NCBI GenBank assembly: GCA_965217625.1
Contig: OZ244557.1
Location: forward strand, 208,082-272,081
Length of the DNA: 64,000 nt
Source of the DNA: Dehalococcoidia bacterium
GTDB taxonomy: Bacteria; Chloroflexota; Dehalococcoidia; Bin125
Direction: 5' to 3'
Shown here: one piece after another, positions 1-37,088 of the stretch
Position numbering within the stretch: position 1 is the first letter of the stretch
Layout: every line of letters starts with the position of its first letter
Notes under the pieces: generated by a model
Told to the model about the DNA's origin: nothing
Databases searched by the model: none
Seen by the model: the letters and a program-made list of their open reading frames with translations, nothing else
Position numbers and translations under genes: made by a program

Positions 1-522
1 CAGCTCGACGGCGCGATCCCGGCCGAGTTGGGCGCGCTGGGCGCCCTGGAGTCGCTGTCGCTGAGCGACAACCAACTCACGGGCCCGATCCCGGCGTCGC
101 TGGGCGAGTTGCGCGCGCTGACGCTCCTGGCGTTGAGCGACAACCAACTGAGCGGCGCGATCCCGGCGTCGCTGGGCGGGCTGGTCGAGCTGACGCTGCT
201 GTCGCTGCGGGACAACCAGCTGACCGGCGCCATCCCGGCGGCCTTGGGCGGGCTGCCCAACGTGATCGGCCTCTACCTGAACGGCAACGAGTTGACCGGC
301 CCCATCCCGCCGGCGCTCGGCGACATGGGCGGCCTGCAGTACCTCTCCCTCAACGACAACCAACTCAGCGGCCCCATCCCCGCCGAACTGGCGATGCTGG
401 CCGGGCTGCAGTCCCTGCGACTGAGCGGCAACCCCGGCCTCAGCGGCTGCGTCCCCGCGTCGCTCCGGGCCGTCGCGACGAACGACCTCGCCGAGATCCC
501 CCTACCCGACTGTTCGCCGTAG
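1..522 (+). CDS. C-terminal fragment of a leucine-rich-repeat protein, 5' end cut by the window edge. It has 24-residue plant-specific-type repeats (LxxLxLxxNxLTGxIPxxLGxLxx) and ends in a Cys-containing cap (SGNPGLSGCVPASLRAV..LPDCSP).
   Basis: The ORF-track translation shows perfect 24-aa periodicity (72-bp DNA periodicity). The C-terminal cap is shared with the two LRR genes at 5834-9835. The reading frame is open from base 1. Confidence 0.7.
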   Translation, partial: QLDGAIPAELGALGALESLSLSDNQLTGPIPASLGELRALTLLALSDNQLSGAIPASLGGLVELTLLSLRDNQLTGAIPAALGGLPNVIGLYLNGNELTGPIPPALGDMGGLQYLSLNDNQLSGPIPAELAMLAGLQSLRLSGNPGLSGCVPASLRAVATNDLAEIPLPDCSP

Positions 523-628
523 CCCGGGCAGCGGGACGTCCGGGATCGCCCGCGTGTAGGATGACCGCGACGGTGTGTGCTATTTTCGCACACACGGACT
601 TGAGGGGCTGGAACCCAAGGACACTGCC

Positions 629-1750
629 ATGACTCCCGGAACCCTTTCGGACTGGCCCGCCGTCGGCGCTCGTGTGACGCAAGCACGCCGCGCGCTGAGT
701 CTGACGCAGGAGCAGCTGGGGGCCACGGTCGGGCTGGGCCGCACCGTGATCGCCAAGATCGAAGGCGGGAATCGGACGTTGAGCGCGCTGGAACTCGCGC
801 AGTTGGCGCAGGCGACCGACCTCCCGATCGATTGGTTCGTGACCGAGTCCCCACCCGTCGTCGCCAGTCATCGCTCCGCCGACCCGTCGATGACGCACCT
901 GGTCGATCTGCGAGTCGAAGCGCTCACTCGCGAAGTCATGCAACTGCTTGAAGCGGACCTGTTGAAGCCGGCGGAGGGCGGGATCCGCCTCGCGCTGCCC
1001 CGGGACGTCGCGGAGGCGGAACGGGCGGCGATGGCGGTGCGGGAACATCTCGGCCTCGACGAGGAGGCCGTCATCGATCTCGGCGCCGCGGCCGAGAAGC
1101 TGAGTCTCTTCGCCTACTCGCTCGCGCTGCCCGGAAGTCAGGCCGACGGGGCCTACGTCGCCGCCGGCGAACGGGCCGGCGTGGCCCTGATCAACGGTGT
1201 GCATCCATCGGGACGGCGTCGCTTCACGCTGGCGCACGAGATCGGGCATCACGTCTTCCAGGACGAATACGCGATCGACCAGGACTTGGACACCGACACC
1301 GAGCGCCTGATCAACGCCTTCGCGATCCACCTGCTGCTGCCTCGGGCCGGGCTGCTGCGGCGGTGGGACGCGCTCAGCGGGCCGGACGACCACCGGCACG
1401 CGGCCATCGTCATCGCGGCGGAGAGTCGCGTGAGTTGGACCGCCCTGTGCGGGCACCTGGTCAATTTCGGCCTGCTGGGCCAACACGCGGGTGAGGTTCT
1501 GGGGGAGGCGCCGCCGAGCGCGCGGGAATACGCCGCGCTCGGCATCTCCATCGCCGAGGAGTTGGTCGCCCCCGCGATCCCTCAATCGATCCGGCGAGCC
1601 GTGTTTCGCGGCTACCGGCGGCATCGGCTCGGAACGGGCAGGGCACTGGAGCTTCTGCACGGCGCCGTGACGGAAGACGATCTGCCCGAACAAGACCAGA
1701 TCCCGCTTGAAGCCTTGGCGGGTGAGTTGCGGAGCCGGTCGCCAGCGTGA
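629..1750 (+). CDS. Fusion of an XRE-family HTH regulator with an ImmA/IrrE-type (M78, COG2856-like) zinc metallopeptidase
   Basis: The N-terminus has an HTH_XRE signature (LSLTQEQLGATVGLGRTVIAKIEGGNRTLSALELAQLAQATDLPIDWF). The centre has the HEXXH motif in RFTLAHEIGHHVFQDEY. The ATG at 629 is the first Met after upstream low-complexity sequence. Confidence 0.75.
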   Translation: MTPGTLSDWPAVGARVTQARRALSLTQEQLGATVGLGRTVIAKIEGGNRTLSALELAQLAQATDLPIDWFVTESPPVVASHRSADPSMTHLVDLRVEALTREVMQLLEADLLKPAEGGIRLALPRDVAEAERAAMAVREHLGLDEEAVIDLGAAAEKLSLFAYSLALPGSQADGAYVAAGERAGVALINGVHPSGRRRFTLAHEIGHHVFQDEYAIDQDLDTDTERLINAFAIHLLLPRAGLLRRWDALSGPDDHRHAAIVIAAESRVSWTALCGHLVNFGLLGQHAGEVLGEAPPSAREYAALGISIAEELVAPAIPQSIRRAVFRGYRRHRLGTGRALELLHGAVTEDDLPEQDQIPLEALAGELRSRSPA

Positions 1751-2292
1751 CGCCGGCCGCCGTCTTTGTCTTCGATGCGGGACCGCTGAGCTACTTCGCT
1801 CGCGCCGGCCGGATGGATGTGCTCCACGACGTCTGCGGCGATGCCCGCTGCGTCGTCACCGATGAGGTGGCCCGGGAGCTGGAACAGGGCGCCTCTGCCT
1901 ATCCGGCATTGCGCGCCGCTCTCGATGCAGAGTGGCTCAAGCGCGTCCGCCTCGCGAGCCTCGACGAACTCGGAGTCTTCGCGGAGTACGCCCGGGTTCT
2001 CGGTTCATCCAGGGAACGGGATCGCGGCGAAGCGGCGACGCTGGCGTGGGCCGAACTCCACGCAGCAACGGCCATCGTGGACGATCGGGCCGGCGTGAAC
2101 ACCGGGCGGGCCAGGGGAGTTCCGGTCCATGGGACGCTGTGGCTCGTGATCCAGGGGTTGCGGCGTGGACGGCTGACGGAGCCGGATGCAACGGCCCTCG
2201 TTGCAGCGTTCCTGGAAGCAGGCCAATGGCTCCCGTTCGAGGGTGCTGAGGAGTTCATACCCTGGGCACGCCGAGAGTTCCTGCTCGACTAG
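1747..2292 (+). CDS. PIN-like nucleic-acid-binding protein (DUF3368/COG2405-like). Its GTG start overlaps the stop of the ImmA-like gene.
   Basis: The N-terminus VFVFDAGPLSYFARAGRMDVLHDV...VVTDEVARELEQG resembles PIN-like DUF3368 proteins. There is a 4-nt GTGA start/stop overlap with the upstream gene, which suggests translational coupling. Confidence 0.5.
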   Translation: MTPAAVFVFDAGPLSYFARAGRMDVLHDVCGDARCVVTDEVARELEQGASAYPALRAALDAEWLKRVRLASLDELGVFAEYARVLGSSRERDRGEAATLAWAELHAATAIVDDRAGVNTGRARGVPVHGTLWLVIQGLRRGRLTEPDATALVAAFLEAGQWLPFEGAEEFIPWARREFLLD

Positions 2293-2327
2293 CGGAGGAG
2301 CCCAGTCGCGCCGCAAATCTCGCAGTC

Positions 2328-2540
2328 TTACGTGTGCGGCGCGGGGGAGAGGCGGATCACCGCGGGGCGAGGCATACCCTCGTCGAAGTAGCAATCGACG
2401 GCCTCGCGGACGTTGGCGCGCACCTCGTCGATGGTCTCGCCCTGGGTGTGGATGCCGTAGCCCAAGGCGCTGGCGGAGTAGCCGCCATCGACCTCGTCCT
2501 CGCTGACCTCGAAGATGATCTCGGTGATGGGGGATGTCAC
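2328..2540 (-). CDS. HicB-like/UPF0150-family antitoxin-fold small protein (no HicA partner seen)
   Basis: Core sequence ITEIIFEVSEDEVDGGYSASALGYGIHTQGETIDEVRANVREAVDCYF matches the HicB/UPF0150 fold family. The likely start is the GTG at 2540. The upstream part of the 101-aa ORF is Arg-rich low-complexity. Confidence 0.55.
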   Translation of the reverse strand: MTSPITEIIFEVSEDEVDGGYSASALGYGIHTQGETIDEVRANVREAVDCYFDEGMPRPAVIRLSPAPHT

Positions 2541-2636
2541 GGCGTCTCCTCTCGCAGGGGGGCGCGCGGCGCGTGCTCGCCGTTCGCCGCGCCCAGGGTA
2601 TCGCCCCGGGAGGGAGTGCGTCCGCGACGCCACCCA

Positions 2637-4433
<1,797 letters not shown>

Positions 4434-4600
4434 GCCCTCACCTCATCTATTGCTCGGCCGTGTGGCCGGCCGATTGGGCGTCGCGACTGACCCGCGACGC
4501 CGGCTCACTGTGCCACGGCGCCCGATCGCGATCAACGCGCGGCGCGGCGGACGCGAGCGCGGGCGGCGTCGCGGATACACTGGCGACCTACACTGGGCGT

Positions 4601-5827
4601 GTGAGCACCCGCATCGATCCGACGACCGCGTCCGCTGCGACCGCCCCGCCCGCGCCGGTCAGCGTGTACGTGCACGTGCCGTTCTGCACGGTCAAGTGCG
4701 CCTACTGCGACTTTAACTCGTACGCCGGCATGGAGGACGCGATCCCGGCCTGGGAGTCGGCGCTGCTGACGGAGCTGCGCGCCTGGGCGCCGGTCGTGGC
4801 GGGCCGGCCCGTGCCGACGGTGTTCATCGGCGGGGGCACGCCCAGTCTGCTGGAGGGCGCGTCGATCGCGCGCATCCTCGACGCCATCCGCGCGGGCTGC
4901 GCGCTCGACGACGGCGCCGAGATCACGCTGGAGGCGAACCCGGAGTCGGTGCAGCCGGAGCGGCTGGCGGCGTACCGGGCGGCGGGCGTGAACCGCCTGT
5001 CGATGGGGGTGCAATCGCTCGACCCGGGCGAACTGGCGTTCCTCGACCGCCTGCACGACGCCGAGCGCGCGCGCTGGGCCTTCGACACGGCGCGCGCGGC
5101 GGGCTTCGACAACATCAACTGCGACCTCATCTTCGGGCTGCCGGGGCAGTCGCCCGCGGCGTGGCGGCGCAGCCTCGACGGGGTCGTGTCGTGGGGCCCC
5201 GACCACCTGTCGTGCTACGGGCTGACGGTCGAGGACGGGACGCCGCTGGCGCAGCGCGTCGCGGAGGGGCGGGTGACCGAGGCGGACCCCGACGTGGTGG
5301 CGGAGATGTCGGAGTGGACCGAGGCGCGGCTGGCGACGCTGGGCTATCGCCAGTACGAGATCAGCAACTGGGCGCGGCCGGCGGCCGGCGGGGCGAGCCG
5401 GGCCTGCCGGCACAATCTCGTCTACTGGCGGCAGGGCGAGTACGTGGGTGTGGGGCCGGGCGCGCACGGCTTCGTCGACGGCGTGCGCTACGCCGTCGAG
5501 CGCAGCCCGGCGCGCTACGTCGCGGCGCTCACCGGGCCAGGCGGCGAGGACGCCCGCTGGGCGGCGGTCGTCTCGCAGGAGGCGGTCGACCCGGCCACGG
5601 CGGCCGTCGATGCGGCCGTGCTGGGCCTGCGCCTCAACGCCGGCATCGACGAGCCAGCCCTGCGCTCCCGTTACGGCGACGCCTGGACCGTCGTCGAGCC
5701 GGGCCTCCGCTGGGGCCTGGAGTCGGGCCTGCTGGAGCGGTCGGAGGGCTCGCTGCGTCTGACGCACCGCGGCCGTCGCCTGGCCAACGAGGTCTTCGTG
5801 CGCGTCGTCGCGCCGGAGGTCGTGTGA
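4601..5827 (+). CDS. hemW: Radical-SAM heme chaperone HemW (HemN-like, oxygen-independent coproporphyrinogen oxidase family)
   Basis: Radical-SAM CxxxCxxC motif (VPFCTVKCAYCDFNSY) and a HemN C-terminal domain. The GTG at 4601 gives about 408 aa. The longer 4460 start adds Arg-rich junk. Confidence 0.85.
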   Translation: MSTRIDPTTASAATAPPAPVSVYVHVPFCTVKCAYCDFNSYAGMEDAIPAWESALLTELRAWAPVVAGRPVPTVFIGGGTPSLLEGASIARILDAIRAGCALDDGAEITLEANPESVQPERLAAYRAAGVNRLSMGVQSLDPGELAFLDRLHDAERARWAFDTARAAGFDNINCDLIFGLPGQSPAAWRRSLDGVVSWGPDHLSCYGLTVEDGTPLAQRVAEGRVTEADPDVVAEMSEWTEARLATLGYRQYEISNWARPAAGGASRACRHNLVYWRQGEYVGVGPGAHGFVDGVRYAVERSPARYVAALTGPGGEDARWAAVVSQEAVDPATAAVDAAVLGLRLNAGIDEPALRSRYGDAWTVVEPGLRWGLESGLLERSEGSLRLTHRGRRLANEVFVRVVAPEVV

Positions 5828-5833
5828 GGGGGG

Positions 5834-8740
5834 TTAGGGGTCGCAGTCGGGGAGGGGGAGTTGGTCGAGGTCGTGGCTGTGGAGGTCGCGGAGGGCGGGG
5901 GGGATGCAGCCGGTCAGACCAGGGTTGCCGCTCAGATGGAGATGCAATAGGTCGTCCAACTCCGCGAACGCCAGGGGGATTGGTCCACTCAGTTGGTTGT
6001 TGTGGAGCAAGAGGGATTCCAGGTGGCGCAGCGACCCCAGTTCCGCCGGAATCGGGCCCGTCAGTTGATTGTCGTTCATAATCAGAATTCCCAACTCCGG
6101 CATTGAGCCCAGCGTCGCCGGGATCGGACCGCTGAGTTGGTTATCGGGCAGATCCAGCCGGTATAGACGCGGCAGGGATCCAAGCTGTGCGGGGATTGGT
6201 CCCGTGAGTTGGTTGCCGCCCAAGTTCAAGTACTCGAGATGCCGCAGCGCCGCTAGTTCGACGGGAATCGGCCCACTCAGTTGGTTGTGAGCAAGATCCA
6301 ACTGCCGCAAGTTGGGCAAGGATCCCAACTCCGAGGGGATCCCGCCCGTCAACTGGTTGCCGGCCAAACGCAGGGTCTTCAGGGTACCCAGGGAGCCGAG
6401 CGCCGCCGGGATCGCACCGCTGAGCAGGTTGTTCTGCAGACGCAGGAACTCCAGGGTGCCCAGGGATCCGAGCGCCGCCGGGATCGCGCCGCTGAGCAGG
6501 TTATCGTTGAGCGACAAGATCTGCAGCCTGGGTAGGGACGCGAGTTCGGCGGGGATCGCTCCGCTCAACTGGTTGTCGCTTAGGTCCAGAACCGAGAGTT
6601 TGGGCAGCGATCCGAGTTGGGCGGGAATCACCCCGGTCAGTCGATTGCGGCCTAGGTACAAGATTTCCAGTGAGTCAAGCGAACTCAACTCTGCCGGGAT
6701 CCCGCCCGTTAACTGGTTGCCGCTCAGGCTGAGGTGCGAAAGTTGGCTAAGGGATCCGAGCCATGCTGGGATCGCGCCGCTCAGCTGATTGCCGTTGAGC
6801 CCCAGGAGTCGCAGATCGCGCAGTGAGCGCAGCGCTGCCGGAATCGGGCCGCGCAGTTGGTTGTGGCTCAGACGCAGGTACTCCAACTCGTGCAGGGATC
6901 CCAGCGCTGCGGGGATCGGGCCAGTCAGCCGGTTGATCCCAAGCGACAGTGTCGTGAGATTGTGCAGGGTGCCCAGCGCCGCCGGGATGGGGCCGCCCAG
7001 TTGGTTGTCACTAAGGCCTAGGGAGGTGAGGTTGCGCAGAAATCCCAACTCCGCCGGGATTCCGCCTGTCAACCGGTTGTGCCCTAGGTACAGGGTCTCC
7101 AGGTCGCGCAGCGATGCCAGTTGCACGGGGATCGGCCCGGTCAGTTCGTTCGCGTCTAACTTCAGTGACCGCAGGGTTCTCATGGACCCCAGCCAGTCCG
7201 GGATCGGGCCCCTGAGATGGTTCCTGCGTAGGCTCAGATTCTCTAGCTTGCGCAGAGAGGCGAGTTCCGCCGGGATGGCGCCACTCAACTGGTTGAAGCC
7301 CAGCGACAGCTGGGTCAGATTGCGCAGAGCCCCCAGCGCCGCCGGGATCGGGCCGCTGAGGTCGTTGCTGTCCAGATCCAGATACCGCAGCTTGCGCAGA
7401 GAGGCGAGCTCCGCCGGAATGGTCCCACTCAACTGGTTGTAGTCCAGCGACAGTTCGGTCAGGTTGCGCAGCGCGCCAAGTGCTACGGGGATCGTCCCCG
7501 TCAGCTGGTTGCCGCGGAGCGACAGGGATTCGAGGTCGTGCAGCGCTCCGAGGTCCGGCGGGAGCAATCCCGTCAGTTCGTTGCGGCTGAGCCGCAAGAC
7601 CCTCAGGCCCGTCAGGCCAGCCAGTTGCGGTGGAATTCGGCCCGTGAGACCACGCAAGTGCAAGTCCAGTCCGGAGACGCGTAGCGGCGTGCCCCCGACG
7701 ATGAGCCCACCCCACTCCGCGATGGGAATGGCGGGATCCCAATTGAGGGGGGCGTCCCCTCGGAGCGTGTCCCGCGCGGCGAGCAGGGCGGCGCAATCCG
7801 AGACGAGGCCGGGGTTGTCGGCGGGGCTGGGCACGGCGACGCCGTTCTCGCAGGGCGGCGGGGGCGGCGGCGGCGGGCAGTCGGGCAGGGGCAGGTCGTC
7901 GAGGTCGTTGGAGGGGACGTCACGTAGCGCAAGCGGGACGCAGCCGCTAAGGCCGGGGTTGCGACTCAACTCCAGGTAGACCAAGTCTCCCAACTCCGCC
8001 AGCGCGGGCGGGATCGGACCGCTGAGGTCGTTGCTGCGCAGATAGAGCGTGGTCAGGAAGCGCAGGGATGCGAGTTCGGCCGGAATCGGGCCGCTGAGTT
8101 GGTTGTGGGACAGGGCCAGATTCCGGAGCGCGGACAGCGCCCCCAGTTCGGACGGGATCGAGCCGCTCAACTCGTTGCTCTGCAGCCACAGCGATTGCAG
8201 TTCCGGCAGGGAGCCCAGGGACGCGGGGATCGCGCCGCTGAGGCCGTTGTTGCTCAGCGCCAGGGACCGCAGCTTGCCCAGCGATCCCAGCGTCGCGGGG
8301 ATCGGACCGCCCAGTTGGTTGTGGTGCAGCCAGAGGTACCACAGGCCGCGCATGTCCCCCAGCGCCGCGGGGATCGGGCCCGACAGTTGGTTGAAGGACA
8401 GATCGAGGCGCCAGAGCGCGTCCAGGCCCGCCAGTCGGGCTGGGATCTGACCCGTGAGACCGTGGCGTGCCAGATCGAGCGTTCGCACGCGCGGCGGCTC
8501 GCCGGAGACGCCGACGCCGTCCCATTCGCGAATCGGCACGGACGCGTCCCAGTTGAGAACAGCGTCGCCGGCGAGGGCGTCCTTCGCGGCCAGCAGGATG
8601 TTGCAGTCGGCTACGAGAGCGGGGTTGAGGACGGCCGTACCGTCCTCGCAGGTGGGGGGCGCGGCCTGGGCCGGGCCGGACGCGAGGCCGGCCAGCAGCA
8701 GCGCGGCGAACAAGAAGAAGGAGAGGGCGCACTTCCGCAC
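5834..8740 (-). CDS. Secreted leucine-rich-repeat protein (968 aa) with two tandem modules. Each module has an N-terminal Cys-cap domain (PTCEDGTAV..DC..LLAAKDAL..LNW), many 24-aa plant-specific-type LRRs, and a C-terminal cap (SGNPGL[ST]GC[IV]P..LPDC). A poly-Pro linker joins the modules.
   Basis: Signal peptide MRKCALSFFLFAALLLAGLASGPAQA. Repeats LxxLxxLxLxxNxLSGxIPxxLGx are visible along the whole protein. The internal duplication is separated by PPPPPPPP. Confidence 0.8.
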   Translation of the reverse strand: MRKCALSFFLFAALLLAGLASGPAQAAPPTCEDGTAVLNPALVADCNILLAAKDALAGDAVLNWDASVPIREWDGVGVSGEPPRVRTLDLARHGLTGQIPARLAGLDALWRLDLSFNQLSGPIPAALGDMRGLWYLWLHHNQLGGPIPATLGSLGKLRSLALSNNGLSGAIPASLGSLPELQSLWLQSNELSGSIPSELGALSALRNLALSHNQLSGPIPAELASLRFLTTLYLRSNDLSGPIPPALAELGDLVYLELSRNPGLSGCVPLALRDVPSNDLDDLPLPDCPPPPPPPPCENGVAVPSPADNPGLVSDCAALLAARDTLRGDAPLNWDPAIPIAEWGGLIVGGTPLRVSGLDLHLRGLTGRIPPQLAGLTGLRVLRLSRNELTGLLPPDLGALHDLESLSLRGNQLTGTIPVALGALRNLTELSLDYNQLSGTIPAELASLRKLRYLDLDSNDLSGPIPAALGALRNLTQLSLGFNQLSGAIPAELASLRKLENLSLRRNHLRGPIPDWLGSMRTLRSLKLDANELTGPIPVQLASLRDLETLYLGHNRLTGGIPAELGFLRNLTSLGLSDNQLGGPIPAALGTLHNLTTLSLGINRLTGPIPAALGSLHELEYLRLSHNQLRGPIPAALRSLRDLRLLGLNGNQLSGAIPAWLGSLSQLSHLSLSGNQLTGGIPAELSSLDSLEILYLGRNRLTGVIPAQLGSLPKLSVLDLSDNQLSGAIPAELASLPRLQILSLNDNLLSGAIPAALGSLGTLEFLRLQNNLLSGAIPAALGSLGTLKTLRLAGNQLTGGIPSELGSLPNLRQLDLAHNQLSGPIPVELAALRHLEYLNLGGNQLTGPIPAQLGSLPRLYRLDLPDNQLSGPIPATLGSMPELGILIMNDNQLTGPIPAELGSLRHLESLLLHNNQLSGPIPLAFAELDDLLHLHLSGNPGLTGCIPPALRDLHSHDLDQLPLPDCDP

Positions 8741-8810
8741 GGATCACCTCGGTCCGTACACGTCGCCCCTGCCCAGGGACACCGTACCGCATCGGGGGCA
8801 GGATGGCACG

Positions 8811-9835
8811 CTAGGGCGGACAGTCCGGCAGACCGACCTCCCCCAGGTCATGGCGACGGACGTCGCGGAGCGACGGGGGGATGCAGCCGGTCAGGCCGGC
8901 GTTGCCGCTCAGCCGCAGCGACGTCAGGTCGGCGAGGGAGGCCAGCCCCGCGGGGATCGGGCCCGTGAGTTGGTTGCCGTCGAGGTGCAGGCGCTTGAGG
9001 CTGTGCAGGCCCGCGAACGAGGCGGGGATCGCGCCGCGCAGCTGGTTCCGCTCGAGCAACAGGTCGAGCACCTCGCTCAGCGACCCGAGCGCTGCCGGGA
9101 TGAGCCCGCTCAGCTGGTTGTCGTGCAGCGAGAGGAGTCGCAGGACGTCCAGCGACCCCAACTCGGCCGGGATGCGGCCCGTCAGCTGGTTCTCGTGCAG
9201 CAGCAGGGAAACCAAGCCGGAGAGCGATCCCAGCGCCGGCGGGATCGCGCCCGTCAGTTGGTTGTCGAAGAGCCACAGGCGCTTGAGGGCGGGCAACGCC
9301 CCCAGTTCCGCCGGGATGCGGCCCGTGAGTTGGTTGTCGTGCAGCCAGATCTCGCGCAGGCTGCGCAGCGACCCCAGCGCGGGCGGGATCGACCCGCTGA
9401 GCTGGTTGGCGTCGAGCCACAGCCGCTCCAGATGGCGCAGCGAGCCCAGCTCGGGCGGGATCGGCCCGGTGAGCCGGTTGTGGTGGAGGCCCAGCTCGCG
9501 AAACTCCCGGACGTTGCGAAGTGCGGCGCGATGCGGCCCGTGAGGCCGCGCGACCGCAGGTGCAGCTTCCACACGCGGGGCGGGTCGCCGCCCAGGCTGA
9601 CGCCGTCCCACTCGGCGATGGGCGTGTCGCCGCCCCAGTTGAGCGGCGTGCGGGCGCTGAACTGCGTCTTGGCGGCGAGCAGGTTGGCGCAGTCGATGAC
9701 GAGGCCGCGGTTGGCATCGGGGTCGGCGACGACGATGCCGTTCTCGCAGGTGGGGGGTGCGGCGTGGGTCGGGCCGGCCGCCAGGCCGGCGAACAGCAGC
9801 GTGGCGAACAAGAAGGAGAAGGCGCACTTGCGCAT
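8811..9835 (-). pseudogene. Third LRR paralog, disrupted by a single-base deletion (-1 frameshift) near 9527-9531, which splits it into ORFs 9254..9835 and 8811..9959
   Basis: The N-terminal ORF encodes the signal peptide MRKCAFSFLFATLLFAGLAAGPTHA and the same N-cap domain. It then runs out of frame after ...GLTGRI. The LRR and C-cap (SGNAGLTGCIPPSLRDV...LPDCPP) continue in another frame. Reconstructing GRIPAALRNV needs one inserted base. Confidence 0.6.
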
Positions 9836-10021
9836 GGATCACCTCGGTCCCGACGCCTCGCCCCTGCCCCGACAGCCTACCCCCAATCCGACGCCGCGCC
9901 GGGCGCGTACTCTCCTCATGAGTGCCCGCCCCCACGGCGACCACTTCCCCCACCGGCACGAGATGCGGTGATAACCTGCCCCCGACGACGGCGGACGGGG
10001 CCTACGAACGAGTGAGGATCG

Positions 10022-15799: not shown

Positions 15800-16435
15800 A
15801 TGTCCCTGGTTAACCCCGCCGCGATCGTCCCCATGGTCGTCGAGACCACCAACCGCGGCGAACGCGCCTACGACATCTACTCGCTGCTGCTGCGCGAGCG
15901 GATCATCTTCCTCGGCACCCCCATCGACGACCAGGTCGCCAACGTCATCGTCGCGCAACTGCTCTACCTCGACCGCGAGGACGCCGATCGCGACATCCAG
16001 CTGTACATCCACTCCCCCGGCGGCTCGATCACCGCCGGCCTCGCCATTTACGACACCATTCAGATCATCTCCGCCAACGTGTCCACCATCTGCGTGGGCA
16101 TGGCGGCCTCGTTCGGCACGGTCGTGCTGTCGTCCGGGGCGCCCGGCAAGCGCTACGCCCTGCCCAACGCCACGGTGCACATGCACCAGGCCCTGGGCGG
16201 CGCCCGCGGGCAGGCCTCCGACATCGAGATCGCGGCCCGCGAGATCCTGCGCGAGAACGAGATCATCCGCAACATCCTGGCCAAGCACACCGGCCAGCCG
16301 CTCGACATCATCAAGCGGGACACCGACCGCGACTTCTATCTGGATGCCGAGCAGGCCAAGGAGTACGGCCTGATCGACGAGATCCTCGGCGGGCCCGCGG
16401 CCGAAGCGGCCGCCGCCGCCGCCGCCGCCTCCTGA
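15800..16435 (+). CDS. clpP: ATP-dependent Clp protease proteolytic subunit
   Basis: Ser-His-Asp protease family sequence ([14 protein letters not shown]...HMHQALGG). It has a poly-Ala C-terminal tail. Confidence 0.95.
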
Positions 16436-16520
16436 GCGGCCGCAATCCACGCGGCGGGCCCCCGCCCCCGCCGCCCCCGCCGGCCGAGACAGGCCGGCGG
16501 CGACACGGGAGGAGCGCGCA

Positions 16521-17879
<1,359 letters not shown>

Positions 17880-25736: not shown

Positions 25737-25771
25737 GACTTATCGCTAATAGCGACCGCGCTAGTTTTCGT

Positions 25772-26947
25772 TTGCGCGAATGGGGAAGTCCCGTGATCGC
25801 CACGACCGCCCTGGAGCGACGCCCCCATGGCCGCCGGGTCGCGTGCCCGGAGGGGTACCGCGCCTACGTCCCCGCCCCGCTCCCCCCGCCCCTCGCCTGG
25901 GACGGGGGGCTCATCGCCGCGCTGTCCGACGCCGACCGCACGGTCGGCGCCCTCGCCGGCGAGGGCCGCCGCCTGCCCAACCCCCACCTCCTGATCCGTC
26001 CCTTCGTGCGCCAGGAGGCGGTCCTGTCGAGTCGGATCGAGGGGACGCAGGCGACGCTCGGGGAGTTGCTGATCGCCGAGGCGGCCGCGCCGTATCACGC
26101 CGGGCCCGACGACGTCCATGAAGTCGCCAACTACGTGACCGCCCTGGAGTACGGCCTCCACCGCCTCGAGGCGCTGCCCCTGTCGCTGCGCCTCGTGCGC
26201 GAGCTGCACGACCGCCTCATGCGCGGCGTCCGTGGCGATGTCGCCGCGCCCGGGGAGTTCCGTCGCAGCCAGAACTGGATCGGGCGTCCCGGCTGCACGC
26301 TGAACGATGCGTCCTTCGTCCCGCCGCCGCCGGTGGAGCTGATGCCCTGCCTCGGCGCCTGGGAGCGCTACCTGCACGACGACGCGCTGCCGCCGCTGGT
26401 GCACGCGGGGCTGACCCACGCCCAGTTCGAGGCCATCCACCCTTTCCTCGACGGCAACGGCCGCGTGGGGCGTCTGCTGATCACGCTGCTGCTCGTCGAG
26501 CGGGACGTTCTCCCGTCGCCGCTGCTCTACCTCAGCGCCTACTTCGAGGCCACGCGCGACGAGTACTACGCGCGCCTCCTTGGCGTCACCGAGCGCGGCG
26601 AGTGGGAGGAGTGGCTGACCTACTTCCTGCGCGGCGTCGCGCTGCAGGCGCAGGACGCGCTGGACCGCATCCGCCGCATCGACGACCTGCTCGCCGGATG
26701 GAAGCAAGAGCTGCCCCCCGGCCGCTCCCGCGTCCCCCACCGCGCCCTCGACCTCTTCGCCGAGAACCCCTTCTGGACCGTGGCCGGCCTGGCCGGGCGT
26801 CTCGGCGTCGCTTTCACCACCGCCCAGCGCGCCATCGACCGCCTGGAGGCGGCGGGCGTCGTCGCCCGCGTCGGCGAGGCGCGTCGCAACCGTCTCTACT
26901 GCGCCGGCACCCTCCTCCGCGCGCTGGAGGAGCCGGTCGCCGGGTGA
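25772..26947 (+). CDS. fic: Fic-family protein, class II. It has an N-terminal Fic_N with the inhibitory motif SxxxEG, the HPFxDGNGRxGR active site and a C-terminal winged helix.
   Basis: HPFLDGNGRVGRLL is the Fic motif. VLSSRIEGT is the cis inhibitory helix. The annotated start is TTG at 25772; a GTG at 25793 is an alternative. Confidence 0.85.
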   Translation: MREWGSPVIATTALERRPHGRRVACPEGYRAYVPAPLPPPLAWDGGLIAALSDADRTVGALAGEGRRLPNPHLLIRPFVRQEAVLSSRIEGTQATLGELLIAEAAAPYHAGPDDVHEVANYVTALEYGLHRLEALPLSLRLVRELHDRLMRGVRGDVAAPGEFRRSQNWIGRPGCTLNDASFVPPPPVELMPCLGAWERYLHDDALPPLVHAGLTHAQFEAIHPFLDGNGRVGRLLITLLLVERDVLPSPLLYLSAYFEATRDEYYARLLGVTERGEWEEWLTYFLRGVALQAQDALDRIRRIDDLLAGWKQELPPGRSRVPHRALDLFAENPFWTVAGLAGRLGVAFTTAQRAIDRLEAAGVVARVGEARRNRLYCAGTLLRALEEPVAG

Positions 26948-27585: not shown

Positions 27586-27818
27586 ATGCGGTCCGCCTCA
27601 ATCGCGCGCAGGATCACCGACGCTGGCACCTCCCGCGGCGCCTCCGCCAAGCGCGCCCGGACTGTCTCAATCCACTCCTCGATGGAGGGCTGGTTGGCGG
27701 TCCGCTCCAATTCAGCGCGCAGGTACGCCTGCCTCGACAGACGCTGCAGCTCGGCGCGCTCGGCCTCCCGTTCGCTCACCTCTTCGGGCACGCCCCGGGT
27801 CGTGATCTGCTCTGCCAT
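27582..27818 (-). CDS. vapB: VapB-like antitoxin (small, helical)
   Basis: 78-aa protein MAEQITTRGVPEEVSEREAERAELQRL... It sits immediately upstream of vapC and overlaps it. The ORF-track version was over-extended at its 5' end. Confidence 0.6.
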   Translation of the reverse strand: MAEQITTRGVPEEVSEREAERAELQRLSRQAYLRAELERTANQPSIEEWIETVRARLAEAPREVPASVILRAIEADRM

Positions 27819-28018
27819 GCATGCAGAATCGCAGCAATGACATCGATCCGCAAGCGCGACCCCCCTCGCCGGCCGAGGCGGTCGGGACGGCGGCCGCCCG
27901 AACGTGCCATAATCACCGCACGCGTCGGCGGCGTACGACTCCCCGGCATCCGCGACCGACTGGCCGCGGGCCCCCACCCGGGGGCGCAGCGACCGCCGCC
28001 CGGAGAGGTGGGCGACAG

Positions 28019-29539
28019 ATGTCCTCCGTACTGCGTGGCCTGACTGGATCGACACTCCTGCTGCTCCTCATCGCCGGCGCGATGCTCCTGACCACCGCCC
28101 AGGGCGCCGCGCAGGACCTCGACGAAGACGACGAGCCCGCCCCGCCGCCGATCCCCATCACCGGCGACGAACTCCGCAACCTCAGCTACCCCAACGAGTG
28201 GCCGGCCGACGGCGTCGCCCCCCTGACCGATGGCGTCTACACCGAGCCCATCCCCGATTCCGTCGCCCAGGTGCGCGTCGAGTTCCGGCGCGCCGCCTTC
28301 GGCGAGATCGACGGGCGGGCCGCGGCCGCCGTCGTCCTCGCGAGCAGCGGCGGCGGCACCGGGACCTTCTACGAGCTGCACGCCGTCACCCGCGATGAGG
28401 ACGGCGACCCCCGGTCCGTCGCGCGCCACCTCCTCGGCGACCGCATCGGCCTGCAGGGCCTCACCTTCGACGGCGATGTGGTCCGTGTCGACTTCATCGG
28501 CTTCGCCCCCGGCGACGGGGCCTGCTGCCCCACCCTCGCCGTGACCCAAGACTTCGGCCTCCGCGACGGCGAGTTGGTGTTCCTGCACGGGGCCGAATCG
28601 CCGGTCTGGCTGCCCCTCGCCCAGGGCTCCAGCTTCGTCTCCTGGTTCCGCGGGCCCACGACCTCGCGCGCCATCCTGGCCTCGGCCGGGTTGCTCGACC
28701 GCGTCTGGGTGCTCGACTCCAGCGACGGCAGATGGGTCCTCGACGCCCGCCATCCCGCCCCTGGCGCGGGCGCCCCGATCCTGGTCGAGCAGGGCAGCCA
28801 CCTCGTCCTCGTGGCCCGCGCCGCGACGAACGTGCCCGTGCTGCTGCTCCGCGCGCCCGACGCCTGCCCGCTCAACCCCGGGCCCCCCAACCCCGTCGAC
28901 CCCTCGATGATCGTCTACGGCCCGGGCAACGGTGAGACCTTCGCCGGCTCGGTGGCCGTCTCGGGCCTGGCCCGCGCCTTCGAGGCCAACGTCCGCCTGC
29001 GCGTCCTCGACGCCGGCGGCGCCGTCCTCGCCGACACCCACACCACCGCCGAGGTCGGCGGGCCCTACTTCGGCGCGTTCTCCGCCGACATCCCCGTCGA
29101 CGTCGCCGAGGAGACCGAGGCCTGCGTCCAGATCTTCGAGCAGTCCGCCCGCGACGGCCTCGACGTCAACGTCGTCCAGATCGGCGTCACCCTGCTGCCC
29201 GCCCTGCCCGCCGACTTCCCCGCCGCGCTGCTCTACCCCGGCGCCACGGTCGTCTCCGACAGCCGCTCCAGCAACGACGAGGGCGAGACCTTCGTCACCG
29301 CCCACCTGGCCGTCGACGCCGGCGCCGCCGACATCCTCGCGTTCTACGAGAGCGCCTTCGCCGCCCTCGACGCCCCCGGCCAGGTTTTCGATGGCTATAC
29401 GGGGCCCAACGACACCCCCGTCGTCTACCTCGCCCTGCAGGATGTCTCCTACGCCGCCCAAGCCATCATCCGCGAAGGCGCCGCCCCCGGCGGCGCCACC
29501 CTCGTCGAGGTGACGATCAACCTGGATCCGCCGGGCTAG
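28019..29539 (+). CDS. Secreted hypothetical protein with a C-terminal Gmad2-like Ig-like domain
   Basis: Signal peptide MSSVLRGLTGSTLLLLLIAGAMLLTTAQGAAQD. The C-terminal segment IVYGPGNGETFAGSVAVSGLARAFEANVRLRVLDAGGAVLADTHTTAEVGGPYFGAFSADIPV resembles the Gmad2 immunoglobulin-like domain. Confidence 0.5.
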   Translation: MSSVLRGLTGSTLLLLLIAGAMLLTTAQGAAQDLDEDDEPAPPPIPITGDELRNLSYPNEWPADGVAPLTDGVYTEPIPDSVAQVRVEFRRAAFGEIDGRAAAAVVLASSGGGTGTFYELHAVTRDEDGDPRSVARHLLGDRIGLQGLTFDGDVVRVDFIGFAPGDGACCPTLAVTQDFGLRDGELVFLHGAESPVWLPLAQGSSFVSWFRGPTTSRAILASAGLLDRVWVLDSSDGRWVLDARHPAPGAGAPILVEQGSHLVLVARAATNVPVLLLRAPDACPLNPGPPNPVDPSMIVYGPGNGETFAGSVAVSGLARAFEANVRLRVLDAGGAVLADTHTTAEVGGPYFGAFSADIPVDVAEETEACVQIFEQSARDGLDVNVVQIGVTLLPALPADFPAALLYPGATVVSDSRSSNDEGETFVTAHLAVDAGAADILAFYESAFAALDAPGQVFDGYTGPNDTPVVYLALQDVSYAAQAIIREGAAPGGATLVEVTINLDPPG

Positions 29540-29553
29540 CCCCGGCGTCGGTG

Positions 29554-29643
29554 TGGCGGAGGGGGAGGGATTCGAACCCCCGAGACGCTTGCGCGCCTAG
29601 CGGTTTTCAAGACCGCCGCCTTCAACCACTCGGCCACCCCTCC
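29554..29643 (-). tRNA. tRNA-Ser (anticodon TGA), 90 nt with a long variable arm
   Basis: The reverse complement gives GGAGGGGTGGCCGAGTGGTTGAAGGCGGCGGTCTTGAAAACCGC...GGGGGTTCGAATCCCTCCCCCTCCGCCA. The anticodon loop is CT-TGA-AA, the acceptor stem is 7 bp with a G discriminator, the T-loop is TTCGAAT and a CCA end is encoded. Confidence 0.9.
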
Positions 29644-29682
29644 GCGACCGTCGTTGCCGGCCCCCTCAGCCTACCCCGGCCG
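29624..29682. repeat. Left copy of a 59-bp imperfect direct repeat (54/59 identical to 33273-33331). It covers the first 20 nt of the tRNA-Ser 5' end plus upstream flank.
   Basis: AACCACTCGGCCACCCCTCCGCGACCGTCG(T/C)TG(CC/TT)GGCCCC(CT/AC)CAGCCTACCCCGGCCG read at both sites. Confidence 0.8.
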
Positions 29683-32600
29683 CGCCAAGATTCCCTGCCA
29701 ATCGGCGCTCTTATGAACGACCTCCTGTCTACGGAGGTCGATATGCTGGTCTTCGTGGGCGACCAAATCGAATGACGCCCGTTCCCACCGAATCACTGCG
29801 GGGGATGTGGGCAGGACACGGCGCTGCGACGGAGGCAAGCCATCTTCGACCGGCTTCATGGGGCCATCGAGCGAGCCATTCAAGAACCGCTGAACGGGCG
29901 GCTGTTCGAGCGGTGCGCGGTGGATCTCTTGCGCCAGAACTACTACCCGAAGCTGCGTCCCACCCCGGACGGATACGACACCGGCATAGATGGGATCGCT
30001 GGCCCGGATGCGGATCCGGAGTTCGTCCTGGTGGCCACGGTCGCGCAGGATCCCGCGCGCAATCTGAGGGGGAGCGTCAAGCGCCACGTAGATGCCGGTG
30101 GCCCGGGCCGGACCGTCGTATTCGCCACGTCGCAAGCGATCACCGTCGCGCGGCGGCGGCGGCTGGAAGAGGAGTTGAAGGACAAATTCGGGGCTCGGCT
30201 CCTCGCAGTGCATGACTGCGGTGACTTCGTCTGGATGCTCTACGACCACCCCCAGTGGCGGAAGGATCTGCTCGGTGTCGCGGGCGCAGCAAAGGCGCTT
30301 AGTCGATTCCCCGCCAACTCGCGGCCGACGCCTGCGGTCCCCTTGATCGGGCGCGATGCAGATCTCGAGCGACTGCAAGCCGTGACCGGCGATCTCCTAG
30401 TGGTGGGTAAGCCCGGCGTCGGCAAGACGTTCCTGCTGGAACAACTGGCGTCCGAGGGCTGGGGTCTCTTCGATGCGGGATGGGCCATCGACAAGCTTGA
30501 GGACGCCGTCCGGGAGATGAAGCCGCGGCGGGTCGTGGTCGACGACGCACATTTGAAGGGGGAGGACCGCATCCCCCAAGTCGTGAGGCTGCGTCGGGAG
30601 ATGAACGTCGACTTCGACATCGTGGGCGTCTCGTGGCCGGGCCAAGCTGACACCGTGTCGGGGCAGTTGCCCGAGGCGACGCGCTTCGACGTTGAAGAGC
30701 TGGAGCGTGACCAGATCGTCGAAGTGATTGAGCAAGCGGGCATTGGGGGCCCGCCGGAATTGCAGCGCACCATCGTCGATCAGGCCCGCGGCTGCGTGGG
30801 GCTGGCGGTCACACTCGCCCGCGCCTGCGTCGCGGGCAGGGTCCATGAAGTTGCGACGGGCGAAGCGCTCGTCGACGATCTCGTCCGATGGTATGAGCGA
30901 AGGCTGGGTTCAGAGAGTCGTCACATGCTCGGAGTGCTGGCGCTCGCGGGTGACGGCGGCGTGACCCTTGGGCAGGCTCGCGAGATCCTGGGCCTCACCG
31001 TACCTCAGAGCAGCAGCCTCATCCGCGGTCTGGCTTCGGGCGGCACCATTGATGAGGTTCCGTACCGCGCGCCGCGGATGCGGGTGCAGCCCGAAGCACT
31101 GCGCTATGCGCTGGTGCGAGACGTGTTCTTCGGCGGGCTCGGATCGCTGGATGCTGCCAGTGCCATCGATGGCCTCGACCCTCCTTCGGTTGCTGCGATC
31201 CCGCTCATCGGGGCGTCGCATCGTGGCGCGGATGTTGACCGCGGGCTGTTGCAGTCGATTGTTGATTGGAGCGATAAGAGAACTGCCGTGGAATACGCAT
31301 GTCTCGGCCCGGGTGAGTTCCAGACGGCGCTTGAGCAAGCGCCGACGCACCGCACGCCAGTCGCCGAGGCCGCGCTCAAGTTTGGAATCGATACCCGACG
31401 CGCGCTCCAGGTTCTCATGGGACAGGCTGTGGGTGATGATCGCTCCGAGCACAACACGCCCGAACACCCTCTCCGCATCGTCGGTGACCACCTCGCACGG
31501 AGAGAGACGCCATTCGAGGCGAGAAGGCTCGCCGTGGAGGTTGCGGACTCGTGGTTCAAGGAGGGAGGCGACGGCGAGGTCGGGGTCCGCGTGCTGATGC
31601 ACGCCGTGCGGTTGGAGCTGCACGGTGCGGTGCAGGATCCGGGGGTCGGGGACACACTCCGGATATACCGGGGGATGGTGCCCAAGCCGTGGATCGACGA
31701 GCTCTCGCGCCTCTGGGATTCGATCCTCGACATCTTCGATCGCGAGCCCAACCTGCTTCCCGCCCCTCTCCTGGACGCATTGCATCCTTGGGTTCAACCA
31801 AACACGGTTGTCCTCGGACGGGGGCTGGACGACGAGGCTTTCGTTGAGATCCGAAGAATCGCCGCCCGCGTAGTAGCGCGGCTGGCGGAGATATTCGGAG
31901 ATCGCCCAGGTGTGCTGCGCTCCCTGAATGAGCATGTGGAGCGTGGGAATATCCCGGTCCCGATCGAGTTGCCGGACTACTTCACAGTGCTTTTCCCGAA
32001 ACGCTGGGACGGTTCTGACGACGACGACGGGCTAGACGGGTGGCAGCGTCGGGCCGACGCGGGGGTGCGGCGCTTAGCGGAACAACTGCGCAAAGAGTCT
32101 ACCGACGACATCGCGGCGTTCATCGTAGGCGCAGACTCTCAGGCCGCCACGGCCGGAATCACGTACCCGCGTCACACGCCTCATCTCGCCAGAAGGCTCG
32201 CCGCAGACTCGGACTCGCCCGAAGCGTTGCTCGCCGCCCTGGAAGCGAGCACGGCGGCCCCTGACATCCTCCTGCCGCTCCTCGACCGCGTTGCTGAACT
32301 CCAGCGTCCGGGTTGGGAAGCAACCCTCGAACGTCTGCTCGCTGAGGATCGGGCGGCTTGGGTGCCTATCCAGGTCGCACTGACCCGCCCCTGCGACAAC
32401 CGGCTCAAACAGCTGGCGATCAAGCAGACTGGACCCTGGCTCAGTCTCATTGACAACCTCGTGATCATGGACCAGATCGAGCACGCGACGCTCGCGCTCC
32501 TCTTCGACGCGCCTGACGCCAGCGTTCGGAAACAAGCAGCGACGACGATAGGAAGCGTGGATTCTGGGTGCCGGCTCGAGAGCCTGTCTCCCTCCATGCT

Positions 32601-36929: not shown

Positions 36930-37088
36930 GCGTCCTCATGGGGATGAACGCCAGGCTCACTTCCGCCGCCGAGGCCTACTTCGAGGAACTTCGCCGCGTG
37001 CGCGCGTCGGGCGGCGCGACGGCGGAACGCTCCCGCTACCACAGTCGTGGAGTTCCTCACAGCCACAGTTCCGGCGGGCGAGAGAGCG

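Follow-up and report, generated by a model that had tools for sequence, protein, structure and literature searches.

Three paralogous genes, here called A, B and C, lie within positions 1-9959 of the 64-kb stretch of DNA that was analysed (the window) and encode chains of leucine-rich repeats (LRRs) of the plant-specific class, closed at their ends by distinctive cysteine caps. They are part of the core chromosome of a bacterium from the class Dehalococcoidia (Chloroflexota); 10 of 10 genome matches are to Chloroflexota, and tblastn found no LRR copies beyond A, B and C in the 64 kb. The three genes are members of a bacterial family of capped LRR cassettes that is very large and unnamed, and on balance we consider it probable that these old paralogs encode extracellular proteins of adhesion or recognition, with host or matrix components as their most likely targets.

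The paralogy and positions of the three genes had been reported in an initial annotation, which also placed the repeats in the plant-specific LRR class; both assignments hold. All 39 full units, by our own count, are exactly 24 residues long, where 23-25 residues was the length test for the class, and they follow the consensus L-x-x-L-x-L-x-x-N-Q-L-(T/S)-G-x-I-P-A-x-L-G-S-L-x-x, compared with LxxLxLxxNxL(t/s)GxIPxxLGxLxx for plant-specific LRRs (PMC2946307). L11, G13 and P16 occur in all 39 units, L4, L6, N9, I15 and L19 in 38, L1 and L22 in 35, T/S12 in 34 and G20 in 29. Pfam recognizes LRR_1 and LRR_8 in both B (1.3e-102 and 7.3e-89) and A (1.3e-23 and 3.1e-23). The best 40 PDB sequence matches are plant LRR-RK/RLP ectodomains (from GSO1 at 1e-155 down to 5e-58), whereas bacterial chains do no better than 5e-43 (Leptospira LIC11098); the best 50 Foldseek matches are likewise all from plants, being LRR ectodomains, PGIP or similar proteins. 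The AF2 model of the first cassette of B (pLDDT 95.7, with block means of 87-98 in the C-cap) has an N-cap helix at model residues 13-30, and DSSP assigns to each repeat a strand, a second strand and a short helix. The common bacterial LRR class is thus set aside by the consensus fit and by the matches in the PDB and Foldseek.

Table 1. Features of the LRR locus and its immediate surroundings (positions in the window)
Feature	Position	Strand	Description
Gene A	1-522	+	3' end of gene with stop codon, truncated by window edge
A LRRs	46-405	+	five full LRRs, preceded by a partial LRR
A C-cap	406-519	+	SGNPGLSGCVPASLRAVATNDLAEIPLPDCSP
XRE-HTH + Peptidase_M78 gene	575-1750	+	context, outside the LRR family; low GC3 (0.82)
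DUF3368/PIN-like gene	1747-2292	+	sub-threshold in Pfam (E 3.6e-4); low GC3 (0.76)
Gene B	5834-8740	-	968 aa
B cassette 2 C-cap	5837-5950	-	C945, C966; SGNPGLTGCIPPALRDLHSHDLDQLPLPDCDP
B cassette 2 LRRs	5951-7678	-	24 full LRRs
B cassette 2 N-cap	7679-7852	-	C297-x18-C316; PPCENG..DCAALLAARDTL..LNW
P8 linker between B cassettes	7853-7876	-	P289-P296
B cassette 1 C-cap	7877-7984	-	last LRR merged with GC267VP..LRDV..NDL..LPDC288; SRNPGLSGCVPLALRDVPSNDLDDLPLPDCPP
B cassette 1 LRRs	7985-8488	-	seven full 24-residue plant-specific-class LRRs
B cassette 1 N-cap	8489-8662	-	C31-x14-C46, helix (LLAAKDAL), then LNW..P..EW.GV; PTCEDG..DCNILLAAKDAL..LNW
B signal peptide	8663-8740	-	MRKCALSFFLFAALLLAGLASGPAQA/AP; read from sequence, not from a predictor
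Leader of B	8741-8755	-	GGACCGAGGTGATCC with Shine-Dalgarno GAGGTGA, immediately before the GTG start
Gene C	8811-9835	-	one reading-frame break
C C-cap	8814-8927	-	SGNAGLTGCIPPSLRDVRRHDLGEVGLPDCPP
C N-cap		-	PTCENG..DCANLLAAKTQF..LNW
Frameshift site in C	9514-9515	-	A2 run versus A3 in orthologs
C signal peptide	9761-9835	-	
Leader of C	9836-9850	-	identical second copy of the B leader, before the ATG start

The cysteine motifs first noted at both ends of the cassettes are present with only slight deviations (SRN in the first cassette of B, NAGL in C and LRDL in the second cassette of B). Every cassette has exactly four Cys and none inside the repeats; apart from its signal peptide, B contains only the eight cap cysteines (31, 46, 267, 288, 297, 316, 945 and 966). 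The caps are conserved across the family, and each of them probably carries one disulfide. The C-cap, with the motif GC[IV]P..LR.V..(N/H)DL...LPDC, has no model in Pfam or NCBIfam. For the N-cap, the initial suggestion that it is LRRNT_2-like stands as a likeness between profiles but not as membership: 27 N-caps (the window's three and those of relatives) align by hhalign with a small template of five LRRNT_2-type caps (probability 90.3%, E 1.5e-6, 36 columns), yet the window's caps gave no Pfam match to LRRNT_2 (PF08263) at E<=10, and only three of 28 scanned caps, again the window's three plus those of relatives, matched it, with a best E of 0.02. The CxWxGVxC pair of LRRNT_2 is missing, the segments that follow the helix in the window (EWDGVGV, EWGGLIV and EWDGVSL) being free of Cys, and a C-x14-18-C pair is found upstream of the helix instead.

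Gene B encodes a signal peptide and two complete cassettes, of 8 and 25 LRRs, the second unusually long for a family in which most cassettes hold 3-9. The cassettes are joined by eight prolines, as had been described, and the linker is exact between Cys288 and Cys297. Gene C has a signal peptide and a single cassette of nine LRRs. An identical leader precedes both genes (two matches versus none expected). Secretion, likewise proposed at the outset, is supported by the Sec signal peptides with AXA sites that can be read from the sequences of B and C; in that of B, an n-region (RK) is followed by a hydrophobic core of 16 residues and a signal peptidase I site, A-Q-A, and no lipobox was seen on the same reading. 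B terminates two residues past its last Cys with no anchor motif, and neither B nor C has, as read from sequence, anything after the C-cap or a membrane domain that could serve as an anchor; an LPXTG motif or an Ig-like inter-repeat domain was not found in the window's proteins. B and C are accordingly predicted to be extracellular.

The class had been thought rare in bacteria, a view that is contradicted by the size of the family. Of only 8,000 candidates scored in a first search, 1,511 matched at E<1e-10, most of them from metagenomes, and a profile of the cap junction found 7,777 protein clusters (50% identity), of which 4,008 reach E<=1e-10. Proteins with several cassettes are the norm: many clusters hold 10 or more, cap junctions reach 17-28 per protein, and loci hold between 3 and 17 cassettes, with eight in L004, nine in L003, and 17 N-caps together with 135 LRR units within 18 kb in L002. 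The cap-junction pattern was not found on viral contigs, and hence there is no phage link. Close homologs are widespread in related genomes, and by the criterion that the initial annotation had set for its own refutation the cassettes form a conserved family. In two syntenic GTDB Dehalococcoidia MAGs (L005 and L007), nucleotide identity is 83-90% over hemW and gene C, and also over aspS in L005; the locus is inverted relative to both. The ortholog of gene A in L007 (7276-7794) is 83% identical at the amino-acid level.

A recent expansion of the paralogs, as originally proposed, is at odds with their protein identity of about 49-57% and with the intact orthologs of C in L001, L005 and L007, the closest relatives of the window; the paralogs are old. 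Nor is B a recent internal tandem duplication, since the identity between its two N-caps is 61% whereas the second shares 80% with its counterpart in L001, and since a multi-cassette layout is usual in the family. As for the neighbourhood, the LRR genes do surround the XRE-ImmA/PIN islet and lie beside a peptide ABC-transporter locus (the SBP_bac_5 gene), together with aspS and hemW, but the linkage to the transporter is not conserved: in L005 the SBP gene adjoins aspS. The islet at 575-2292, with PADLOC matches to RmrA (6.5e-20) and PDC-S70 (3.3e-14), is a toxin-antitoxin or defence-like pair.

Each cassette forms a self-contained solenoid consisting of an N-terminal helical cap, 3-25 plant-class 24-residue LRRs and a C-terminal cap, and proline-rich linkers string such cassettes together. 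We propose that B and C would be exported by Sec, cleaved by signal peptidase I and, having no anchor, either be set free or stay at the cell surface through non-covalent contacts; the concave beta-sheet faces may bind protein or peptide ligands, several cassettes would provide several binding sites, and the proteins would act in adhesion or recognition. Host or matrix components are named as the most likely targets because LRR proteins have been reported in sponge symbionts, being enriched in sponge MAGs (PMC8163846) and present in sponge SAR202 and Caldilineae (PMC6306507), and because one family-bearing MAG is from a sponge: L003 corresponds to COS3_bin_15 from Coscinoderma matthewsi, classified as c__Dehalococcoidia;o__bin125 (PMC8163846, supplementary file 9). 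It is important to point out that this MAG, the only documented sponge-derived one to carry the family, is more distant from the window, and that order bin125 also contains Ca. Umbricyclopia, a lineage whose description did not come from sponge studies. A function in host interaction is possible for the window's proteins, but plant-class repeats are unlike typical animal LRRs, which leaves host mimicry without specific support. An arms-race recognition role might be expected to leave diversifying selection on the concave face, of which there is no sign (pN/pS 0.30), and this counts against such a role.

Purifying selection on the concave face would fit a conserved endogenous ligand, and the cassettes could instead be scaffolds of the envelope or between cells, devoid of any host role, that bind polymers on the surface of the bacterium itself, or adjacent cells, as in aggregation or in organising an S-layer or exopolysaccharide. 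In the relative P0123 the LRRs are fused to a Wzy_C membrane domain, and its gene lies among those for a flippase, an asparagine synthase and a glycosyltransferase; an LRR protein next to P0280, with a faint Wzy_C match, precedes a glycosyltransferase gene. The spread of the family over Dehalococcoidia with GC contents from 54% to 76%, and the other phyla named among the sequence matches, also suit a scaffold. B and C, however, carry signal peptides that are cleavable and lack a membrane domain, polysaccharide genes are absent among the annotated neighbours of the window's LRR genes, and arrays of dozens of cassettes resemble a binding repertoire more than a housekeeping scaffold. We regard this alternative as serious although distinctly less than likely; the Wzy_C domains also count for the adhesion or recognition reading, as a sign of surface location in relatives. 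A decaying locus, in which the LRR genes would be pseudogenes remaining from an earlier array, is decidedly improbable. C is frameshifted, many database relatives finish in frameshifted tails, and dN/dS is higher in the first cassette of B (0.55) and in A (0.63). Yet the decay seen in the initial annotation amounts to one indel, as A is simply truncated at the window edge and is not a decayed gene. The lesion in C is the only one in 1,025 nt, a 1-nt deletion in the A-run at about 9514 (gcaacgtcc, where the intact ortholog of 342 aa at L001:8901-9929 reads gcaaacgtcc); with one A put back, an ORF of 341 aa results, and the deletion may be an assembly error. L001 does have several LRR frameshifts, but it has another in the essential aspS, which speaks for an error of assembly in that contig (14x). 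All 968 codons of B are intact behind a good Shine-Dalgarno sequence, and the C orthologs are under purifying selection (dN/dS 0.22-0.35, or about 0.3, compared with 0.05-0.33 for neighbouring housekeeping genes), which argues that the LRR genes are functional and not junk.

A recent horizontal transfer from a plant or alga, with the proteins mimicking plant receptor ectodomains, has been largely refuted and seems to us extremely improbable. In its favour, the best structural alignments give the repeats 33-39% identity to plant LRR-RK ectodomains, plant proteins occur among the sequence matches, and the GC3 of B (0.77-0.88, falling to 0.77-0.79 in the distal two thirds of cassette 2) is atypical for a core genome at 0.96. 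But codon usage is native in both A and C (GC3 0.96 in A and 0.94-0.98 in C), the caps differ from those of plants at both ends, the closest relatives, which number thousands, are bacterial proteins, with plants first appearing at rank 58 of the first search, and syntenic orthologs exist in several Dehalococcoidia species. The odd composition of B appears to be better explained by exchange among bacterial relatives, because L002 is the best match to its 3' part (77%). In a bolder reading, the capped cassette would be a mobile block and recombination within and between arrays would add, delete and swap units or cassettes, generating lineage-specific repertoires of multivalent secreted or membrane-tethered binders that engage an animal host. 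It draws on the GC3 drop along B, on the break in identity between the window and L001 (94% up to the eighth LRR of cassette 2 of B, unrelated beyond), on two adjacent units of B at 6368-6502 whose 90% DNA identity indicates a recent unit duplication, on the inversion relative to L005 and L007, and on the varying number of cassettes per locus. We consider it unlikely as a whole; were it true, bacteria would have in this family an equivalent of combinatorial LRR recognition systems.

Bacterial proteins with plant-class LRRs and LRR-containing eukaryotic-like proteins in sponge symbionts are already known, and what is added here is that a very large family lacking a Pfam or NCBIfam model is precisely defined, by an LRRNT_2-like helix with a predicted disulfide shifted upstream, a distinctive C-cap and whole cassettes linked by proline-rich segments. 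The sponge-symbiont proteins share with those of the window a eukaryote-typical repeat class in Chloroflexota, but the reports are counts at the level of Pfam, and the literature searched yielded no description of a cap-bounded cassette architecture; in PMC6306507 and PMC8163846, the phagocytosis-modulation experiments cited concern ankyrin proteins, not LRRs. A cap-specific HMM would separate the capped-cassette family from generic LRR counts in sponge-microbiome studies, and family-specific counts could test whether it tracks host association, while the high-confidence cassette model offers a construct ready for binding experiments.

Among bacterial LRR proteins, comparison is invited by Xanthomonas XopAC/AvrAC and XopAE, the Leptospira LIC proteins and the Listeria internalins. 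The highest NCBIfam scores are those to XopAC (267.7) and XopAE (225.1), but they stay far below the cut-offs of 450 and 600, and the window's proteins have Sec rather than type III signals, so that an identity as type III effectors was rejected. LIC_11051 scores 223 against a cut-off of 1000. Internalins were rejected as well (InlA, 139 versus 1600 bits), as they have 22-residue SDS22-like repeats in place of 24-residue plant-specific ones and the window's chain ends two residues past the C-cap Cys.

The closest likeness is to plant LRR-RK/RLP ectodomains and PGIP, which have the same 24-residue consensus LxxLxLxxNxL(T/S)GxIPxxLGxLxx, the same solenoid, each repeat of which has a second strand and a short helix, an N-terminal helix followed by W...W.GV, Cys caps at both ends and an extracellular location, which for the window's proteins is a prediction; they also supply the best sequence and fold matches. 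In contrast with plant receptors, the window's proteins have no transmembrane or kinase part, their cassettes are concatenated and their host is a bacterium; the CxWxGVxC pair of plant LRRNT_2 is replaced by the upstream C-x14-18-C pair, and the C-cap differs from the plant motif GN..LCG.PL..C. The caps may also be relevant to a long-standing question, the relationship between the plant-specific LRRs of plants and those of bacteria. In architecture, finally, the animal guidance protein Slit offers an analogy, with four tandem LRR domains that each have Cys-rich N- and C-caps: in Slit as in the window, a secreted polypeptide carries several complete, individually capped LRR domains, although the LRR class and the cap folds are different and the sequences are unrelated.

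Leucine-rich repeat (LRR) proteins are encoded by three genes at the start of the window, A, B and C, and the initial annotation was accurate in its description of the genes and their anatomy. No further LRR copies occur in the 64-kb window. Five non-LRR genes separate A from B, and a peptide ABC-transporter locus lies downstream of C, with tig, clpP, clpX and genes of central metabolism beyond it; these neighbours place the LRR cluster in the core chromosome. A functional tie to the ABC transporter was considered and rejected, since L005, a syntenic Dehalococcoidia MAG locus, does not preserve this adjacency. Long antisense ORFs over the LRR genes (e.g. 8454-9971 on the + strand, 505 aa, which covers two genes and the intergenic region) were dismissed as high-GC artefacts. 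Scans for promoters and terminators performed no better than on shuffles, and exact-sequence look-ups of B and AspS returned no match.

Features of the LRR locus and of other regions of the window
Feature	Position	Strand	Remarks
Gene A	1-522	+	3′ end of LRR gene running past window edge
XRE-HTH/Peptidase_M78 gene	575-1750		PADLOC RmrA models, E 6.5e-20; GC3 0.82
DUF3368/PIN-like gene	1747-2292		Overlaps XRE-HTH/Peptidase_M78 gene; defence candidate PDC-S70, E 3.3e-14; GC3 0.76
Small ORF	2328-2633	-	101 aa, GC3 0.87; between PIN-like gene and aspS
aspS	2637-4433	-	
hemW	4460-5827	+	NCBIfam 266.8 bits, cut-off 205.4
Gene B	5834-8740	-	968 aa
Leader of B	8741-8755	-	GGACCGAGGTGATCC
Gene C	8811-9835	-	Same strand as B, 70 nt upstream of B
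Leader of C	9836-9850	-	Identical to leader of B
Fic/DOC family protein	25739-26947	+	Fic_N 5.3e-26, Fic 2.3e-20
Gmad2 immunoglobulin-like domain protein	27806-29539	+	After Fic/DOC gene
tRNA gene	29557-29643	-	Followed by low-GC stretch (0.655)
P-loop protein	29920-33231	+	1,103 aa, in low-GC stretch; weak matches only (AAA_16, PADLOC mad8)
GRDB-like ORF	35499-36935	-	PF07355 E 4.5e-12; single in-frame TGA at 36375-36377

Several of the other features deserve mention in their own right. The low-GC3 XRE/PIN-like pair (575-2292) probably forms a toxin-antitoxin or defence cassette, and the DNA of window 1-1790, which takes in the XRE gene and the beginning of the PIN-like gene, is shared with the metagenome contig L001 at 81% nucleotide identity. 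The product of the adjoining small ORF matches nothing in Pfam or NCBIfam and by eye resembles a small HicB-like antitoxin. Further along, the region 29557-33231 has the appearance of an island integrated at a tRNA gene, and its P-loop protein may be a defence-type NTPase. The TGA of the GRDB-like ORF, in the context VLAPV-TGA-PACT (U-x-x-C), may be the selenocysteine codon of a glycine/betaine-reductase-B-like selenoprotein; folding of the sequence after it for a SECIS-like hairpin was no better than that of shuffles (z 0.70).

Each of the 39 complete repeat units of A, B and C has 24 residues and follows the consensus LxxLxLxxNQL(T/S)GxIPAxLGSLxx, most defining positions being occupied in 35-39 units and G20 in 29; this is the published consensus of the plant-specific class (PMC2946307). 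Pfam returns very strong LRR_1, LRR_8, LRR_4 and LRR_14 matches, and in a PDB sequence search the best 40 matches are plant LRR receptor ectodomains (GSO1 at 1e-155, FLS2 at 1e-131, MIK2, PEPR1, BRI1 and others), with bacterial LRR proteins, from Leptospira, at 5e-43 and weaker. The AlphaFold2 model of the first cassette of B (pLDDT 95.7, pTM 0.92), uncertain only in its first ten residues, builds each repeat from two successive strands and a short helix, and Foldseek against the PDB ranks plant proteins, among them MIK2, GSO1, FLS2, PSKR, HAESA and PGIP, in all of the first 50 places. Consensus, sequence and fold therefore agree that the proposed plant-specific class assignment is correct.

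The order of elements in B is a signal peptide (MRK, a 16-residue hydrophobic core and AQA|A), an N-cap, eight LRRs, a C-cap, a P8 linker, a second N-cap, 25 LRRs and a C-cap, and the protein terminates two residues past its last cysteine. C follows the plan of B's cassettes with nine LRRs; it is interrupted at ~9514, where an A3 run is short by one A, and addition of the base yields a 341-aa ORF, the ortholog in L001 being intact at this position. The identical 15-nt leaders of B and C directly abut the start codons, contain the Shine-Dalgarno sequence GAGGTGA and are preceded by ~35 nt of similar sequence; the 15-mer recurs in L001 and L005 ahead of the orthologs of B and C, respectively.

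The caps are the distinctive part of the cassette. The N-cap motif, C-x(12-18)-C-x2-LL-x2-(K/R)-x-L-x-G-x3-LNW-x5-P-x3-W-x-GV, and the C-cap motif, L-x-L-x-G-N-x-L-T-G-C-(I/V)-P-x2-L-R-x-V-x2-N-D-(L/F)-x3-(G)LP-x-C, are each found in many relatives, and neither Pfam nor NCBIfam holds a model of the C-cap. The initial annotation had likened the N-cap to LRRNT_2, a likeness that stands at the profile level only: in a profile-profile comparison (probability 90%, E 1.5e-6, 36 columns) the N-cap helix and W...W.GV core align with LRRNT_2-type caps, and a phmmer search of the PDB aligned the N-cap segment to the GSO1 N-cap. Single-sequence Pfam scans are essentially negative, with LRRNT_2 matching three of 28 caps (the window's three and those of relatives) at E 0.02 or worse and none of the window's. 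As the latter also lack the CxWxGVxC pair, membership of Pfam LRRNT_2 was rejected. A literature search on LRRNT_2 in bacteria gave no lead. Other bacterial plant-specific-type LRR proteins among the matches (P0103, P0118) retain the classical C.W.GV.C, and the capped-cassette family, judged by sequence, thus looks like a variant with the disulfide shifted upstream of the N-cap helix.

The history of the locus can be read from syntenic relatives, namely L001 (94% identity over the flanking genes) and the GTDB Dehalococcoidia MAG loci L005 and L007 (83-90%). Since A, B and C are only ~49-57% identical, their expansion is old, and not recent as had been suggested. The gene after C in L005 and L007 is hemW, encoded on the opposite strand, and L007 has an A-like LRR gene directly before C; relative to these loci (L005:6999-11167, L007:7276-12339) the block from C through hemW to aspS is inverted in the window (2637-9835) and L001, where alone B lies between hemW and C. 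The window diverges completely from L001 past the eighth LRR of B cassette 2, beyond which L001 has a further three cassettes. A and C have native GC3 values (0.94-0.98), in B the value declines from 0.88 to 0.77 along the gene, and two neighbouring units of B are 90% identical in DNA. Together with the low GC3 of the XRE/PIN-like pair, these features point to recombination at the level of units and segments, together with some acquisition of sequence from a relative of lower GC.

Wholesale decay of the LRR locus, also proposed initially, is poorly supported: A merely runs past the window edge, and C, which lacks one base, has intact orthologs in L001, L005 and L007 with dN/dS of 0.22-0.35 (0.05-0.33 for aspS, hemW, the SBP gene and the permeases). 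Constraint is weaker in B cassette 1 (0.55) and A (0.63). Frameshifts in many database relatives are probably, at least in part, assembly errors; in L001 the aspS ortholog (15940-17746 of the 14x contig) is itself frameshifted at ~codon 323, so that those in its LRR genes are probably not real decay. A test for diversifying selection at the concave face was negative, pN/pS by repeat position being 0.30 at variable concave-face positions, 0.16 in the scaffold and 0.58 elsewhere. Recent transfer from plants, the source of the best structural matches, is likewise poorly supported; in the first homolog search (1,511 mostly metagenomic proteins at E<1e-10 among 8,000 scored candidates) plants first appear at rank 58, and the few named matches belong to Chloroflexota, Caldilineales, Gemmatimonadota, Acidobacteriota and Gammaproteobacteria.

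The predicted secretion is borne out by signal peptides read in B and C, which would direct Sec export followed by signal peptidase I cleavage. The cysteines of B comprise two per cap and one in the signal peptide; the four in each cassette would form two disulfides, which fits an extracellular life. The concave sheet of an LRR solenoid is the usual ligand-binding face, and proline-rich linkers would space the cassettes as independent binding units. From these properties A, B and C are very probably secreted or surface-associated multivalent binding proteins. That they bind components of an animal host or of its matrix is a tentative proposal with somewhat less than even chances, and the two statements combined are moderately likely. 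Sponge MAGs are reported to be enriched in LRR repeat proteins, and one relative locus, L003, belongs to the MAG COS3_bin_15 (c__Dehalococcoidia;o__bin125, 73.3% GC) from the sponge Coscinoderma matthewsi (PMC8163846 and its supplement); such proteins are also reported from sponge SAR202 and Caldilineae (PMC6306507). The main rival, participation in envelope or cell-cell organisation independent of any host, is suggested by relatives linked to Wzy_C, an O-antigen ligase/polymerase-like membrane domain. The family member P0123 (L013:3001-9249, on a circular 1.8-Mb contig) is fused to it, at a locus with flippase, asparagine synthase and glycosyltransferase genes, and an LRR protein adjoining the relative P0280 (L014:10258-12684, on a circular 5.4-Mb contig) has a faint Wzy_C match and precedes a glycosyltransferase gene.

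The supposed rarity of such proteins in bacteria does not hold. A profile of the C-cap/linker/N-cap junction, run against 1.84 billion cluster representatives, matched 7,777 proteins at E<=1e-3, 4,008 at <=1e-10 and 588 at <=1e-30; the best matches measure 2,000-3,250 aa and contain up to 17-28 matched junctions. At least two N-caps are present in 124 of 147 top relatives, a layout that argues against an internal tandem duplication peculiar to B; their cassettes mostly hold 3-9 LRRs, and the 25-LRR cassette of B lies at the long extreme. Across GTDB species genomes a scan with one narrow pattern (LNWD...), which under-samples taxonomic spread, found 10 loci, all in Chloroflexota and nine titled Dehalococcoidia; a scan of viral contigs found no relative. 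Arrays can be extensive, with 17 N-caps and 135 LRR units in 18 kb at locus L002, and nine, eight and six cassettes at L003, L004 and L005, respectively. The capped-cassette LRR family is worth defining, though no surprise: A, B and C belong to a large, unnamed family, structurally a variant of the known bacterial plant-type LRR proteins.
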